A stretch of DNA of 26,063 nucleotides from Desulfobacterales bacterium S5133MH16 (GTDB lineage: Bacteria > Desulfobacterota > Desulfobacteria > Desulfobacterales > UBA11574). Of this stretch, positions 7,141-16,539 are shown one piece after another; the first letter of the stretch is position 1, and the number at the start of each line of letters is the position of its first letter. The notes beneath the pieces were generated by a model that was not told the DNA's origin, did not search any database, and saw only the letters and a program-made list of their open reading frames with translations. Made by a program: the position numbers and the translations under genes. The stretch spans positions 1 to 26,063 of the forward strand of contig MAXL01000486.1 of assembly GCA_001751005.1 (NCBI GenBank). Direction: 5' to 3'.

Positions 7141-10100
7141 AACGTCCCAAAGAACGGCTTCACCGGGTCACGGTTATCGGAGCGACACCGGCCGGCATCG
7201 CCGCAACCAACAAGCTTGGAGAACTGGGCATTCCCCTTACCCTTGTTGATTCTGATTATGATCTGGATAAAAAACTTTCCCGGGATGAGTGGGTTCTGAA
7301 ATCAGGTGTTCCTTTAAACCATGCCCATCGACCCGGGCTTATCAGAATTTTGAGAAACCCTGGCATTCGATGCATTTTTCCCGCAAAAATCTCCTCGATT
7401 AAGCATAATCGACAAGGATTCCGTGTTCACCTAAACATCCTTCAAACCTTCGTAGATCAAGACAAATGCACCCTTTGCGGTCGTTGTGTTGAAATCTGCC
7501 CGGTTCTGCTTCCCGGAGGAGAAAAAGCTATCCAAATTAACAGTCAGCGAAGCCTTCCCGGCAGGCCGGTCATAGACAAGCGGTGCCGGCCACTCTGCCA
7601 GGCAAACTGTCCGCTAGGGGTAAACGCCCAGGGTTACATCGCCCTTGTAAAAGCCGGCAGGTTTGCCGAAGCGCTTGACCTTATCAGGGAAAATAATGTT
7701 CTGCCCGGCATTTGCGGACGCATTTGTACCCACCCTTGTGAGAACTTTTGCAGAAGGGGTGAACTTGATGAGCCTGTCGCCATTATGGATATTAAGCGAT
7801 TTGTGGCAGACTATGATCGCTCCGATCCCAAAGACATAAAATTATCTGATGTTCATAACAGGTCAGAAAAGATCGTCATTATCGGCTCAGGCCCGGCCGG
7901 GATTGCCGCCGCTGCGGACCTGGCCCGATTCGGCCATGATGTAACCGTTTTCGAAAAAGAGAAAGAAGTTGGCGGGTTGCTCCGTTACGGAATTGGGCGT
8001 CATCGCCTGCCCAAAGATATCCTGGATGTTGATCTTGAGTATATTAAGAAACTTGGTGTACGATTCATTATCGGCCATGCCATTGATCTGGTCCAAGATA
8101 TGGATCGGCTCAAAAAAGACTTTGACGCTGTCATTATCTCCATTGGGACGTGGGCTGACCTAAAATTAGGGGTCCCCGGAGAGATGCTGGAAGGGGTTGA
8201 AGGCTGCCTCTCTTTTTTGGGACGTCTCTATCGCGGCGAAATAAAAGCACTAAACGAAAAAGTAGCGGTGATTGGGGACGGCAACGCCGCATTTGACCTG
8301 GCCCGCACACTCTTGCGTCTGGGTGCCCATGTCACAATTCTATCCTGGTTCCCTGAAGATCTTATCCCTGCCAATACCGAAGAAATTGGGGCCACCAGGG
8401 AAGAAGGAATTCTGATTCGGGACTGCACCCAAACCATTGCGTTCTTAGGTCAAAACGGTAAGCTCAATCGGCTGCGTTGCATGCCCACCAAACCCGGAGA
8501 ACCTGATGCTCAGGGTATCCCCTGGCCGGTCATTATCCCCAATAGCCAGCCCTTTGAACTCGAGTTTGACCGGGCTTTTGTTGCCATCGGTCAAAGGGGC
8601 GCACTCCAGGGCAAAAACAATTCGTTCAGCTTTACTGTTTCGGAACAAGGATTGATTGAGGTTGATGAATATTTGCGCACGAATTTATCGAATGTCTATG
8701 CTGTGGGAGATGCGGTTTCAGGACCCTCATCCGTTGTTGAGGCCATGGCCGCAGGCAGGAGGGTTGCCCGCACCGTTCATAGCGATATTTGTAAAGAGGA
8801 GGTCTTTTACCCTCAGCTCTTAAGACCGGAGGACAAAGATTTTCCGGAAATTCCGGCGGACATACCTTCTCAGGCACGGACGATTATGCCGGAAAGGCAA
8901 CCTGCGGTGCGCAAGGATAGTTTCTTGGAAGTCTCCATGGGCCTGAGTGAACAACAGGTCTTTTTGGAAGCAGCCCGTTGTCTTCAATGCGGAGTCTGCA
9001 GCGAATGTCTTCAGTGCGTTGATGCGTGCGGTGCAATCCTTGCAATAAACCATGTACAGGCTCCGGAAGAAACCATTGAACAAACCGGTGTGGTTATCAT
9101 TGCAGACCCGGAATTAGCCCCGAAGATAAAGGGTGAGGATGTCATCCGAGTGTATGGGCCCAGAGCGGCAAAGCCGGATGTTAACGCCATGTTTGTTCGA
9201 GGCTTTGCCGCAGCTTCCCAGGCCATGATATTGCTTGGGGGAACCTTACAACGGCCAAAAGGATATGGTTTGTCGTTTTCCACTCCTGATCCGGGTCTTT
9301 CTCCGGAAATCCGAGTGGGAGTTTTTGTCTGTAAATGTAACAATACCTTTGGATGGCTTGATGACATGAATCAATATGTCGCGGGATTACAATCTCAAGA
9401 AGATGTGGTTCATGCTCAAGTTGTAAACTCGGCCTGTACTCATGAAGGATCATCGAGTATTATCCGAACGATTCGTGAAAAAGGACTCACCCGCGTGGTA
9501 CTGGCATCCTGTGTCTGCTGCCCCCTCAATTTTATTTGCAGCGCCTGTACGGACCAGCGAAGCCGTCTGAAAAACGCCTTGTTTACCGGGACAGGGATCA
9601 GTCGTTCAATGGTGCAGACATGCAACTTAAGAGGAGAAGTCCTTCGTCTTTTAAAACAAAATAAGTCCCTGGCCGTGAAAAAATTTACCGGACTCATCGA
9701 TCGTTCCGTCAATCGGGCAAGAAGATTGAAACCGCTTCCGGATCTTATTAGAAACTATAATTTCACTACGGCGGTAATCGGGACCTCCGAAGTCGCCATA
9801 AGCAGTGCATTGAGCCTTGCCCAAGCAGGGCTGGAGGTATTTTGGTTCCCACAGTCGCAAAAACCGCCGAATCAAATTCCTGATCATCCCAATGTGCACA
9901 GCTTCGGAGGCTTTTCCATCAAAGAATTGAGCGGAACTCTTGGTAATTTTCACATCATCGCAGAATCAGGCAATTCCCGACAAATAATAACTGTGGGAAC
10001 GGTCATCCTGGATGAAAAGTCAAGAAAGAACATTAAGTATATTCACCAGGAGGGTCTGCCGGGCCGAACCGTATCTTCTTCTATGCAGGACATGGGCGTG

Positions 10101-12311: not shown

Positions 12312-14756
12312 ATGAACATGAAACCTGTTACTTCAATAGATACGAAACCGCAGATGCGTATCGGTGTCTATGTCTGTCATTGCGGCTCAAATATCGCTCA
12401 GACGGTGAACTGCCCAAAAGTTTCCGAAACAGCGTCCGGGCTTGAGGACGTTGTTATTTCAAAGCATATCGCTTACGCCTGTTCCGAGCCCGGTCAACAG
12501 GAAATCCGGGATGATATTCATGAACACGGGTTGGAGCGCATTGTTGTGGCCTCGTGCTCACCGAGACTTCATGAACCCACTTTTCGACAGATGATGCAAT
12601 CCGCCGGTCTTAATCCTTATCTTTTGGAGATGGCCAATCTCCGTGAGCAATGCAGCTGGGTTCATCTGAATGAACCTGATGCAGCAACACAAAAGGCCGA
12701 AGACCTTGTAAATATGGCCGTATCCCGGGCACGATTGCTCCAGCCGCTTGAAGAGGAAAAGCTGCCGCTCACCAAACGAACCCTGGTCATCGGCGGAGGT
12801 ATTGCCGGCATTCAGACTTCCCTTGATCTTGCAGATAACGGTTATGAGGTTGTTCTGGTGGAAAAAAATGCTTCCATTGGCGGAACCATGGCCCAGATTG
12901 ACAAGACCTTTCCGACCATGGACTGTTCCATCTGAATTCTGGGTCCTAAAATGACGGATGTCGGTCGACATCCCCTGATAAAACTCTACACCCTGAGCGA
13001 AATAGTGGATGTTAAAGGCTATGTGGGTAATTTTGATGTCAGGATCTTACAAAAGGCTCGTTATGTGTCAGAGGAAGATTGCACTGCATGTGGTGACTGC
13101 GCTATGGCTTGCCCCGTAGTTCGCCCCGATGAGTTCAATCTGGGCCTATCATCGCGCAAGGCCATTTTCACCCCTTTTCCCCAGGCTGTCCCCTCGGCCT
13201 ATGTCGTCAATATCAATGAATGCTTGGGGCACAACCCCGTGGTTTGCGCAAAATGTCTCGAAGCCTGTGAAAAGGGATGCATCAATTTTCACATGTCCGA
13301 TGATGAAATCCAGGAAAGTGTGGGATCAATCATCGTGGCGACCGGACTGGAGCCGTATGATCCCACTGAGCTTGACGAATACGGATATACAAGATTCGAA
13401 AATGTCCTTACCAGTCTTGAATTTGAACGCCTTATCAATGCCGGGGGCCCTACCAAAGGAAAACTGATTCGTCCCACAGACAGAAGACTTCCTAAATCCG
13501 TGGGCTTTATCCAGTGTGTGGGCTCACGTTCCGCCAGGAAAGGCAGCAGCTATTGCTCCAATACCTGCTGTATGAACACCATTAAAAGTACACTGGTACT
13601 CAAAGAACATTACCCTGATATTGACATAAAGGTTTTTTATATCGACATTCGTGCCGTTGGCAAAGGATTCGAAGATCTCTTTATGCGTAGCCGTCGTCTG
13701 GGAGTGCATTACTTGAGAGGTTTGCCGGGCAACGTTGAAGAGCTGCCGGATCACAGTATGCGGGTTGCGGTGGAGAATACGGTCACAGGCCGGCTGGAAT
13801 TTTTCGATCTTGATATGCTCGTCTTAGCTCTCGGCATGAAGCCGGCCAAAAACACCCGGCGGCTTCAAGAAATGCTGGGGCTTCAGCTAACGGCCGACGG
13901 TTTTTTCCTGGAAGCTCATCCGAAACTCCAACCGGTTGATGCCGCCTCTCGAGGAATTTTCTATGCGGGATGCGCCGAAAGCCCCAAAGATATCAAAGAA
14001 AGCGTTACACAGGCTTCAGCGGCCGCAGTCCGTGCCATTCGCCTGATGCATAAAGGGGAAATTTACACAGAACCGATTACTTCCGAAATAGATCCCGAAA
14101 AGTGCACAGCGTGCGGCAAATGTTCTGAAATTTGTCCCTATAATGCAATTACAAAAGGTATCAGAAAAAAGACACCGTCTGTCGTGAATACGGCAGCATG
14201 CGCCGGCTGCGGCACTTGTGCCGCGGAATGTCCTTATGACGCCATTCTTATGAACCATTTTACGGACGACCAGATTAATAACCAAATCAATTCCATGCTC
14301 GAAAAAAGTTCTCAAGAAAAGATTCTGGTATTTGCCTGCAACTGGTGCTCATATGCCGGCGCGGATTACGCGGGGGTCTCACGTCTTCAATATCCTTCAA
14401 ACGTTCGAATTATCCGGACCATGTGCTCAGGGCGAGTTGACGAAAAATTTATCTTTAACGGCTTTCTTAACGGTGCGCCGGTTGTTCTGGTAAGCGGATG
14501 CCATATTGGTGACTGTCATTATATTGATGCCAACCGCTGGACCGAAAAAAGAGTTAAAAAAATACGCAAAAAAATAGAGAAACTGGGAATCAGACCCGAA
14601 CGGCTCCAGCTTGAGTGGATTAGTGCGGCAGAAGGCAATCGATTTGCCGAGATAATGGGCAGGATGGAGAAACTTCGTCAGGGTGTTTCTATACAGGAAA
14701 TCTCAGAAACAATTGAGATCCTGAAGAATCGGGAAGAAAAATCCGAGGCTCAATAA
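12312..14756 (+). CDS. hdrA: Selenocysteine-containing heterodisulfide reductase subunit A with C-terminal MvhD fusion (814 aa, U208)
   Basis: ORF-track pieces 12312-12935 and 12951-14756 share one frame and are joined by TGA at 12933-12935 in DKTFPTMDCSI-U-ILGPKM, where HdrA has Cys or Sec. Other motifs: GVYVCHCG, GGGIAG, CVGSR..YCSNTCC, and C-terminal FACNWCSYAGAD / MCSGRV / GCHIGDCHY (MvhD). Confidence 0.93.
12956..12973 (+). promoter_or_regulatory. Bacterial SECIS-like hairpin of hdrA
   Basis: Perfect 7-bp stem GGATGTC/GACATCC with GGTC loop, starting 20 nt after the UGA. Confidence 0.75.
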
Positions 14757-15829
14757 TGACAGACTGGGTCGAACAACTCCAAAACAGCGTCAACACCCTT
14801 GACAGACTGAAGGCAGTTGTCAACGTCTCCTCGGAAGAAGAAAAGGCCATAACGACTCTAAATACGAAATGGGGGACAACCCCTTATTTTGCTTCTTTAA
14901 TGGATCCGGATACCCCTGATTGTCCCATACGTAAACAGGTTATTCCTTCTATGAAAGAAACTGAGAATCGATATGGAATTTCCAACTACCTGATCTGGGA
15001 AGAAAATCGTGATACTGAGGAGATCAGACCCGACTGTATTGCCAGGCAGTATCGTGACCGCATCGCTTTCACCGTTACCGATATCTGTGCAACTTACTGC
15101 CGTCATTGTTTTCGTAAAGAACTTGTGGTTGACCGAGATCTTAAGCTTCGCTTTGATTTGGAAGAAGGCATAGAGTGGATCCGTGAACATGAAGAGATTC
15201 GGGATGTTCTCATCACCGGCGGTGACCCTTTCATACTTTCAGACCAAAAGATTGAATATCTTATTCGCAGGCTTCGAGAAATTCACCATGTAGAAATGAT
15301 TCGCTTTGGAACCCGCACACCGATTGTTTTGCCCCATCGAATTACCGATGGTCTCAAAAAGATTCTGAGCAGCTATCATCGGGTGCCAATCTGGGTGAAT
15401 ACCCAATGTAATCATCCAAAAGAAATTACGGAAAAGACGGCAAGGGCTGTTTTCAATCTCCTATCATGCGGAGTCAACGTGGGCAACCAGGCGGTCTTGT
15501 TAAAGGGGATTAATGATGACGTGAAAACGTTTAGGAAGCTTCATCAAAAGCTTTTAGCGGTTCGCATCCGTCCTTACTATGTTTTTTATTGTGAACCGGC
15601 ACCGGGAATCGATCATTTTCGGACACCGGTTGAAAAGGGGGCTGAACTTATTCGAGATGCGCTGCAGGGTCACACGACAGGTCTGGCTCAGCCTATGTAT
15701 GTCATTGCCACCAACATCGGCAAGGTTCCTTTAATGCCGGATTATTACATCATCGAAAAGAATGAAAAAGAATATACGCTGAAAAATTATCAGGGCATTT
15801 ACACAACCTGGCCGAATATGCCGGAATAA
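14756..15829 (+). CDS. KamA-family (lysine 2,3-aminomutase-like) radical SAM protein, divergent active site
   Basis: CATYCRHCFR (CxxxCxxC), DVLITGGD, RFGTRTP, GNQAVLLKGIND, RPYY and GKVP (PLP lysine). TAATG overlap with hdrA. Confidence 0.88.
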   Translation: MTDWVEQLQNSVNTLDRLKAVVNVSSEEEKAITTLNTKWGTTPYFASLMDPDTPDCPIRKQVIPSMKETENRYGISNYLIWEENRDTEEIRPDCIARQYRDRIAFTVTDICATYCRHCFRKELVVDRDLKLRFDLEEGIEWIREHEEIRDVLITGGDPFILSDQKIEYLIRRLREIHHVEMIRFGTRTPIVLPHRITDGLKKILSSYHRVPIWVNTQCNHPKEITEKTARAVFNLLSCGVNVGNQAVLLKGINDDVKTFRKLHQKLLAVRIRPYYVFYCEPAPGIDHFRTPVEKGAELIRDALQGHTTGLAQPMYVIATNIGKVPLMPDYYIIEKNEKEYTLKNYQGIYTTWPNMPE

Positions 15830-15855: not shown

Positions 15856-16539
15856 CTATTGATTTGGCAGGTAGGGCGTTAGATCTCGGATGTATTCTGT
15901 TAGTATTTTGAAGCCGCCATCCGTTAATACAGAAATTGCTTTTTCCTCATCTTCAGCAGCCACCCTCATAATGAGCTGATAAATGCCCGGGAACTTTTTG
16001 ACCGGCCAGGTAACCAAACTTTGGATACTGATCTGCTGATCCTTGAGGAGTCTCGAAACCTCAGCCACAACTCCGATACGGTCTTTTACCAGAACGATGA
16101 ACCGTGCACTTCCCTCATCTACGCCGATGGCACGTAGCAGCACCTCCAAAACATCGGTAGTCGTGATGATTCCTACGAGTTTTTCCGCTTCCATGACCGG
16201 CAGAGCGCTGATCCGGTTTTCCTGCATGATTAGAGCGGCAGTTTCAATGGTAGTGTCGGATGATATGGTGAGGATGTTTTTTGTCATGATCATTTCAACG
16301 GTCAACTGAGTTAATAGATAATTCAACTCATGAACGCTGAGAGTTGTGGCCGGAGAGGCCCAGCTCTGCTTAACATCTCTGTCCGAGACCAATCCAAGTA
16401 AATTTTCATTTTCATCTACTACCAGAAGGTGGTTAATCCGCTTTTCTTCAATAATATCTTTGGCTTTTATTATGGTTGTATCAGGGGAGACAGTCACAAG
16501 ATATGTATTCATAACACGACCCACGTACATAGAGGCCAC
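15856..16539 (-). CDS. CBS-pair + ACT domain protein (AcuB-like)
   Basis: Two CBS repeats (INHLLVVD..LLGLVSDRD; ISALPVM..LVGIITTTD) and a C-terminal ACT-like segment (KDRIGVVAEVSRLL..ISIQSLV). Confidence 0.88.
   Translation of the reverse strand: MASMYVGRVMNTYLVTVSPDTTIIKAKDIIEEKRINHLLVVDENENLLGLVSDRDVKQSWASPATTLSVHELNYLLTQLTVEMIMTKNILTISSDTTIETAALIMQENRISALPVMEAEKLVGIITTTDVLEVLLRAIGVDEGSARFIVLVKDRIGVVAEVSRLLKDQQISIQSLVTWPVKKFPGIYQLIMRVAAEDEEKAISVLTDGGFKILTEYIRDLTPYLPNQ

Follow-up and report, generated by a model that had tools for sequence, protein, structure and literature searches.

The locus and its KamA-family gene

The window analysed in this study is a stretch of 26,063 nucleotides (nt) from Desulfobacterales bacterium S5133MH16 (GenBank assembly GCA_001751005.1, contig MAXL01000486.1, positions 1 to 26,063), and the element under consideration is a gene at 14756-15829, immediately behind hdrA, whose 357 amino acid (aa) product, here termed P0001, belongs to the KamA family of radical S-adenosylmethionine (SAM)/pyridoxal 5'-phosphate (PLP) aminomutases. 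The original prediction, made from the sequence of the window, was that of a KamA-like enzyme with a remodelled substrate pocket that acts on a different substrate and is coupled to an electron-bifurcation operon. We refer to the gene as E/A type, after the Glu and Ala residues found at the positions equivalent to 293 and 330 of Clostridium subterminale lysine 2,3-aminomutase (LAM; structure 2A5H), and residue pairs given below follow the same 293/330 convention. The gene and the relevant elements within it are as follows.

14756-15829, plus strand: KamA-family radical SAM/PLP aminomutase gene, E/A type (357 aa, P0001; TIGR00238, 298.5 bits)
14745-14758, plus strand: ribosome-binding site GAGG (14745-14748) and TAATG overlap with hdrA (14754-14758)
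15047-15049, plus strand: Q98, where LAM has R112 and 86 of 94 other representatives of the family have R or K
15086-15115, plus strand: CxxxCxxC [4Fe-4S]/SAM motif C111/C115/C118 (LAM C125/C129/C132) with R120 (LAM R134)
15218-15226, plus strand: GGD (G155-G156-D157), glycine-rich SAM-binding motif (G155 and G156 invariant in 40 family members)
15404-15406, plus strand: Q217, in place of LAM H230
15593-15595, plus strand: E280, an invariant residue of the clade described below, where LAM has D293 to bind the epsilon-amine of lysine
15707-15724, plus strand: A318-T-N-I-G-K323, with A318 for LAM D330 and K323 as the PLP lysine (LAM K337)

The GAGG sequence is located 7 nt upstream of the ATG start codon (14756-14758), which has one base (A) in common with the TAA stop codon of hdrA (14754-14756), and the overlap proposed in the original prediction is therefore present. 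Assignment to the KamA family is borne out by profile score, cofactor motifs and fold alike. In an NCBIfam profile search P0001 exceeded the cut-off of the KamA subfamily model TIGR00238 (298.5 versus 199.2 bits), while Pfam detected Radical_SAM (PF04055, 39.5) and the start of LAM_C (PF12544, 39.2), both above their cut-offs. An AlphaFold2 model (predicted local distance difference test score 89.4; predicted template modelling (TM) score 0.90) had 2A5H as its best Foldseek match in the PDB (E 6e-38, TM-score 0.84), the next match being viperin with a TM-score of 0.45. A search of the ESM Atlas with P0001 returned generic KamA names only.

Residues of the substrate pocket

P0001 and LAM share 39% identity over the whole length, and their HMMER alignment (E 1e-91) contains no gaps near either key position; codon coordinates were checked. 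This alignment reproduced the retained residues that had been predicted, namely the CxxxCxxC motif and the equivalents of R134 and K337; the segment carrying C111/C115/C118 and R120 is invariant both in the family alignment and in all 133 members of the clade to which P0001 belongs. R120 is presumably the ligand of the substrate alpha-carboxylate, as we take R134 to be in LAM. Q245 corresponds to LAM Q258 and is likewise kept.

The predicted replacements were also recovered in full: D293 is Glu, D330 is Ala, H230 and R112 are both Gln, DPLHE reads NYLIWEE, and the loop preceding the PLP lysine is reduced from APGGGGK to TNIGK, a shortening of two residues. In addition, E122 stands in place of R136. 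The presumed roles of R112, H230 and R136 in LAM were not used as evidence. The Zn site of LAM is missing, as predicted, since D254 occupies the position of C268 and the chain of P0001 ends near LAM residue 370, ahead of the C-terminal ligands C375/C377/C380.

It had been recognised that the assignment would fall if proper alignment restored Asp at both positions. The two key columns directly follow conserved and ungapped anchors (RPYYxxxC-D/E and PxYVx-D/A), and realignment will therefore not restore Asp at either of them. The E/A pair thus matches neither the D/D pair of the lysine enzyme nor the K/N pair of glutamate 2,3-aminomutase, as had been proposed, nor the D/T pair of the arginine type. 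The resulting pocket has a single acid that is one methylene longer (E280), lacks the second acid (A318), is neutral at Q98 and Q217, and is bordered by the shortened lysine loop.

The E/A type forms a distinct clade

Among 133 clade sequences, E280 is present in all (a count taken from the per-column conservation line) and A318 in 131, and conservation reaches 98% or more at 154 of the 357 positions; given this fixation, the changed residues are not a product of chance. Several further replacements are specific to the clade at sites that are otherwise near-invariant, these being P to Y78, E to W81, R/K to Q98, R to E122, Y to W141, F to C218 and Q to Y278, and the clade carries a 5-residue insert. 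A word-indexed search retrieved more than 120 clusters of approximately 357 aa with 80-100% identity to P0001, the named members of which derive from metagenome-assembled genomes of Desulfobacterales, Syntrophobacterales or 'Deltaproteobacteria'. In an exhaustive search of 1.84 billion representatives clustered at 50% identity, the whole clade was reduced to one full-length representative, P0122 (76% identity, 660 bits), plus fragments, and the next protein was only 46% identical (313 bits).

Of 401 Desulfobacterota genomes sampled across the phylum, 14 contain an orthologue that is 71-100% identical to P0001, and these carriers represent at least nine families; all remaining KamA matches in these genomes are at most 46% identical. 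In a maximum-likelihood tree (quick IQ-TREE, LG+C20) the clade is monophyletic with a Shimodaira-Hasegawa-like approximate likelihood ratio test (SH-aLRT) value of 100 and sits on a long stem of 0.74, the E293/A330 type forming a group of its own. These sequence comparisons support the view that the E/A clade constitutes a distinct, uncharacterised class within the KamA family whose substrate-side residues are fixed. A literature search on the E/A clade, on 'glutamine aminomutase' and on the residues of BlsG yielded nothing.

To our knowledge, only three or four specificities are established in the KamA family, namely lysine (in both stereochemistries), glutamate and arginine. The E/A clade is abundant in Desulfobacterota of marine sediments and cold seeps, is strongly conserved and has a fixed and different pocket, and for these reasons it offers a clean and cheap target for the discovery of a new reaction that forms a beta-amino acid.

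Relationship to characterised aminomutases

P0001 remained under every NCBIfam equivalog cut-off, with 366 of 600 bits for arginine 2,3-aminomutase (TIGR04468), 356 of 525 for AblA (TIGR03820), 351 of 650 for glutamate 2,3-aminomutase (Eam; TIGR04368), 238 of 396 for AblA-like-2 and 194 of 369 for EpmB (YjeK; TIGR03821), and it is accordingly placed in none of the AblA, Eam, arginine or EpmB equivalogs. Exemplars for comparison were verified with the same models: P0127 as an arginine enzyme (630 against 600 bits), P0139 as a glutamate enzyme (693 against 650) and P0125 and P0128 as AblA. Their signatures are HCD...LTTRIGK (P0127), HAK...NAPKGLGK (P0139, which confirms the K/N pair quoted in the original prediction) and QCD...DAPGG(A/G)GK (P0125 and P0128). 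Across 108 usable representatives of the family, D/D is found in 74 and K/N in six, and E/A is confined to the clade. The same set also includes roughly twelve further minor types (Q/D, M/G, I/A, R/S and others), from which it follows that the KamA family holds many uncharacterised specificities.

The nearest labelled neighbour in the tree is the BlsG-type arginine 2,3-aminomutase, the model of which is also the best-scoring equivalog for P0001: the clade groups with P0127 and P0131 with an SH-aLRT value of 96, a sister placement that is provisional because the tree contains one verified arginine row. P0127 resembles P0001 in fold, motifs and size (approximately 350-385 aa, the C-terminal Zn/tetramerisation tail being absent), in loop length (LTTRIGK versus IATNIGK) and in having a single acid left in the side-chain pocket. 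The two nevertheless share only 43-44% identity and P0001 differs from it in having Glu for D293, Ala for T330, Gln for both K112 and H230, a remodelled DPLxE motif and the 5-residue insert. The shortened lysine loop is not unique, being common to the P0001 clade, P0127 and several other subfamilies.

LAM proper (KamA/AblA, 2A5H) agrees with P0001 in the CxxxCxxC motif, the GGD motif, the equivalents of R134, Q258 and K337 and in overall fold, but it differs in D293/D330, H230, R112, R136, the longer loop and the Zn site formed by C268 and the C-terminal Cys residues. Eam has the same cofactor motifs and has likewise replaced the D293/D330 pair, yet with K/N and a full-length loop (NAPKGLGK) rather than with E/A and a short one. 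EpmB is, like P0001, a short member of the family without the Zn tail, whereas the EpmB-like genes found beside efp or epmA in Desulfobacterota encode D/D proteins with a long loop.

A glutamine synthetase-like ligase accompanies the E/A gene in some other genomes

The only recurrent neighbour of the E/A gene is a gene for a 436-aa protein resembling glutamine synthetase (GS), which lies directly beside the aminomutase in nine of approximately 22 loci and was found in six of the 15 loci examined by tblastn. Copies are located as follows.

L001, 8541-9851: GS-like ligase gene
L003, 8679-9989: GS-like ligase gene
L037, L036, L050 and L051: further GS-like ligase gene copies

Among the 401 genomes, orthologues of this ligase are present in four, in three of which they adjoin the E/A gene, and we consider the ligase a likely downstream partner of the aminomutase in these other genomes. 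The protein scores below the GlnA cut-off (353 against 429) and has archaeal and Gram-positive GSI-alpha enzymes as its closest solved relatives. It keeps the metal and ATP motifs FDGSS, ExE, HHEV..Q.E, NRS..R.P and R.E.R, while NSYKRL reads NSYKAY (R to A) and DNG(S/T)GMHxH reads QNRNAFHIH (G265 to R). The lost Arg of NSYKRL is what we take to be R321 of Salmonella typhimurium GS, an alpha-carboxylate ligand. Knowledge of the E/A enzyme would help to clarify the role of this rebuilt ligase.

Other KamA-family genes were encountered in some of these genomes. A paralogue of approximately 600 aa, extended at its N terminus by about 180 aa and bearing a K/N signature (NTK...FNVPGQGK), is far under the Eam cut-off (217 of 650 bits) and occurs together with the GS-like/E/A pair in certain genomes; it was located at L038 (1223-3031), at the P0053 locus, on contig C12 of G123 (L057), where it lies elsewhere in the genome, and on contig C16 of G160 (L073). 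In two genomes, an uncharacterised M/G-type KamA gene with the short loop GHDIGK adjoins the E/A gene (L044, 1060-2241, and L045, 9186-10364). At L004 the GS-like gene is called in two pieces (8653-9958; 175 and 253 aa), suggesting a frameshift or an assembly error, and a group II intron (RF02005, RF00029; 19269-19933) follows about 8 kb downstream of the GS-like/E/A pair. In one carrier, the E/A gene shares 22 nt at its 3' end with a gene (L052, 1411-2085) encoding a protein with FmdE and zf-DksA domains. Na+ and cyclic di-AMP riboswitches have been described on ablA and eam genes (PMC9337991); such control of the E/A gene was considered and dismissed, no Rfam riboswitch being detected in eight loci.

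Proposed function and alternative explanations

Starting from the observed family membership, cofactor motifs, fold and residue fixation, a chemistry, a substrate and a role may be proposed for P0001. We give an even chance to the reading that the gene encodes a working radical SAM/PLP amino acid 2,3-aminomutase of distinct specificity which functions as a stand-alone module. By analogy with the chemistry of the family, the cluster bound by C111/C115/C118 would cleave SAM reductively and the resulting 5'-deoxyadenosyl radical would abstract the 3-hydrogen of a free L-alpha-amino acid bound to PLP as an aldimine, with K323 carrying PLP at rest and R120 binding the alpha-carboxylate; the amino group would thereby shift from C2 to C3 and the product would be a beta-amino acid. 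A free alpha-amino acid on PLP is proposed as the substrate because both R120 and K323 are present. Within the genus, the gene stands behind the selenocysteine-encoding hdrA and would probably be read through from it, while its product would act outside the Kor/Hdr machinery.

Since E280, A318, Q98, Q217 and the short loop together alter the pocket, the substrate is thought likely to be a different polar amino acid, and it would require one carboxylate partner only. Lysine would seem to fit this pocket less well than an amino acid with an uncharged amide or ureido group in its side chain, or one whose cationic side chain is shorter or has a delocalised charge, and glutamate would be accommodated poorly. 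That position 330 matters is indicated by the D331G mutation of Bacillus subtilis LAM and the D339H mutation of Porphyromonas gingivalis LAM, each of which moves the enzyme from lysine to alanine and yields an alanine 2,3-aminomutase (PMC9850924). A natural alanine 2,3-aminomutase that provides beta-alanine for coenzyme A was considered for the E/A type and found no support, PanD being encoded by six of ten carriers with no anticorrelation. Beta-glutamine and beta-glutamate are known osmolytes. In Methanohalophilus, GS makes beta-glutamine from beta-glutamate (PMC1224877). The osmolyte role, the marine setting and the GS-like partner lead us to favour, as a first guess, the conversion of glutamine to beta-glutamine, followed by ornithine-, arginine- or citrulline-like side chains. 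The wider proposal, that the clade acts on a substrate new to the family (for example glutamine, giving the osmolyte beta-glutamine) and that the product has several fates in sulfate reducers of marine sediments, as a free solute, as a substrate of the GS-like ligase or as the group attached to elongation factor P (EF-P) where EpmA occurs without EpmB, is advanced tentatively, at slightly under an even chance.

A number of observations weigh against these proposals. The GS-like gene was not found in the window's own genome, which is 88.6% complete, and the loss of R321 in the ligase is easier to reconcile with an acyl substrate other than glutamate than with plain glutamine synthesis. Glu often substitutes for Asp and the arginine enzyme works with one acid, for which reasons lysine or arginine may still be the substrate; of the original prediction, the rebuilt and clade-fixed pocket that matches no known type stands and a different substrate is plausible, yet E280 alone could hold lysine or arginine. 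As to expression, the window stretch recurs in numerous metagenomes from marine sediments and cold seeps and is represented in part in cold-seep metatranscriptomes, with RNA-library contigs on 14967-15141 and 15051-15210 (no mismatches). Two further RNA-library contigs (14499-14789, and 14687-14957 with three mismatches) bridge the hdrA/kamA junction and so fit read-through from hdrA in the window's lineage, but these contigs have a depth of 2-4, carry no strand information and may reflect DNA carry-over. Finally, the genus possesses an intact EpmA of the lysine type and no D/D EpmB, and the E/A enzyme is consequently the sole source of beta-lysine that can be proposed there.

The last point underlies the explanation that P0001 is a disguised lysine 2,3-aminomutase, in which E280 alone binds the epsilon-ammonium group and which, in this genus, replaces EpmB by providing the beta-lysine with which EpmA modifies EF-P. 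The window's genome encodes an EpmA (TIGR00462, 326.6 against a cut-off of 286.9 bits; contig C99, L063 744-1679, minus strand) that has no KamA neighbour, just as the aminomutase is adjacent to neither efp nor epmA in the window, and the E/A type is the sole KamA-family gene of this genome. In the 13 genomes of the genus (G401-G412 and that of the window) the E/A type occurs in all, EpmA in nine and a D/D EpmB-like gene in none, the E/A gene being the only KamA-family gene in several of them; the near-closed genome G206, from another family of the same order, shows the same combination of EpmA and E/A without a D/D EpmB. EpmA-bearing relatives outside the genus have a D/D KamA of approximately 390 aa, and by a hand tally 152 of 156 EpmA-positive genomes of the phylum sample have some KamA-family match. 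EpmA has the same lysine-pocket motifs (LEWY, NxFxEL and ALGxDR) whether a genome encodes the E/A type alone or a D/D enzyme. Its gene adjoins the GS-like/E/A pair in L003 and is found three genes from that pair in L050, and the sister arginine exemplar likewise relies on one acid. Against this, EpmA is lacking from seven of the 14 carriers in the phylum sample (completeness 94-100%) and from four of the 12 other genomes of the genus, each with an E/A gene, and its frequency among carriers (50%) is close to the phylum background (39%). A D/D-type KamA co-occurs with the E/A type in G194, G226, G283, G160 and G390, and in G194 a canonical epmB(D/D)-efp-epmA cluster exists alongside a separate E/A gene; mutation of the D330 equivalent, moreover, shifts LAM off lysine (PMC9850924). 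The carriers without EpmA and the G194 cluster rule out the E/A enzyme as a general EpmB, and the explanation is retained at the level of the genus, where we judge it rather unlikely. An E/A enzyme of defined specificity would clarify how EF-P is modified in genera that have EpmA and lack EpmB.

That P0001 is an ordinary arginine 2,3-aminomutase of the BlsG type, diverged in sequence, appears improbable. TIGR04468 is its top-scoring equivalog model, the tree groups the clade with P0127, and the two proteins are alike in loop length, size and the missing Zn tail; yet the score is far below the cut-off, identity to P0127 is low, the four replacements relative to P0127 (D293 to E, T330 to A, K112 to Q and H230 to Q) are fixed in the clade, and the grouping combines a long stem with a single verified arginine exemplar. 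We regard as very improbable a further glutamate 2,3-aminomutase of independent origin, which would produce the osmolyte beta-glutamate for amidation to beta-glutamine wherever the GS-like partner exists. Adjacency of this ligase, the beta-glutamine synthesis by GS in Methanohalophilus (PMC1224877) and the marine-sediment and cold-seep origin of the organism and its kin would be in keeping with such an enzyme, but Glu at position 293 would repel a gamma-carboxylate where the Eam exemplar has K/N, no new basic residue specific to the clade was found at a known pocket-lining position, and the long K/N paralogue of L038, the P0053 locus and G123 fits the role better.

The hdrA/kor neighbourhood

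In the window, the aminomutase gene is preceded by genes for a ferredoxin, KorA, KorB and KorG, a 1119-aa GltD/HdrL-like protein, an MvhD-HdrD fusion and an HdrA-MvhD fusion. Its immediate neighbours are as follows.

12312-14756, plus strand: hdrA-mvhD fusion, one 814-aa selenoprotein (TGA at 12933-12935 = U208), upstream neighbour in this genus-level lineage only
15856-16539, minus strand: CBS-CBS-ACT domain gene, convergent to the aminomutase (same place in three close relatives)

The order Kor-Hdr-KamA-(CBS/ACT) is retained in three relatives, the aminomutases of which are 97%, 92% and 89% identical to P0001. The junction between hdrA and kamA has the same overlap in the first of these, a 385-nt gap in the second and a 135-nt gap in the third, where the AT-rich spacer (L053, 7866-8000) contains an AGGAGG of its own; it is likely that the one-base overlap of the window arose by a recent deletion, or the L053 spacer by a recent insertion. 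When all proteins of the window were compared by tblastn with 15 further orthologous loci, the aminomutase was the only match, and gene maps and Pfam contexts showed the flanks of these loci to be otherwise unrelated to each other. Across approximately 18 other loci from at least nine families, no Hdr or Kor gene was found near the orthologue.

The predicted functional coupling of the aminomutase to the electron-bifurcating Kor/HdrL/HdrA-MvhD complex, for instance through reduction by the complex or by feeding it, is therefore rejected as a conserved link, as the synteny is gone beyond close kin (89-100% identical), and Hdr/Kor neighbours are not a feature of the E/A clade as a whole. Such coupling would accord with the TAATG overlap, with the RNA contigs that span the junction, with the need of radical SAM enzymes for a low-potential electron donor and with the synteny in the three close relatives. 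It is largely refuted by the comparative context, in that the arrangement is limited to proteins at least 89% identical, the junction varies even among these and the orthologues from other families lack such neighbours, and we find it scarcely credible. That the gene lies behind hdr genes by local chance, with no functional link, agrees with these data, and the E/A aminomutase accordingly adds nothing to flavin-based electron bifurcation.

ACT domains usually bind amino acids, and a regulatory link between the CBS-CBS-ACT protein and the aminomutase is possible on that account. U208 of the HdrA-MvhD fusion lies within the sequence DCSI-U-ILGPKM, and open reading frame callers split the gene into products of 207 and 601 aa, as is also seen in the records of relatives.

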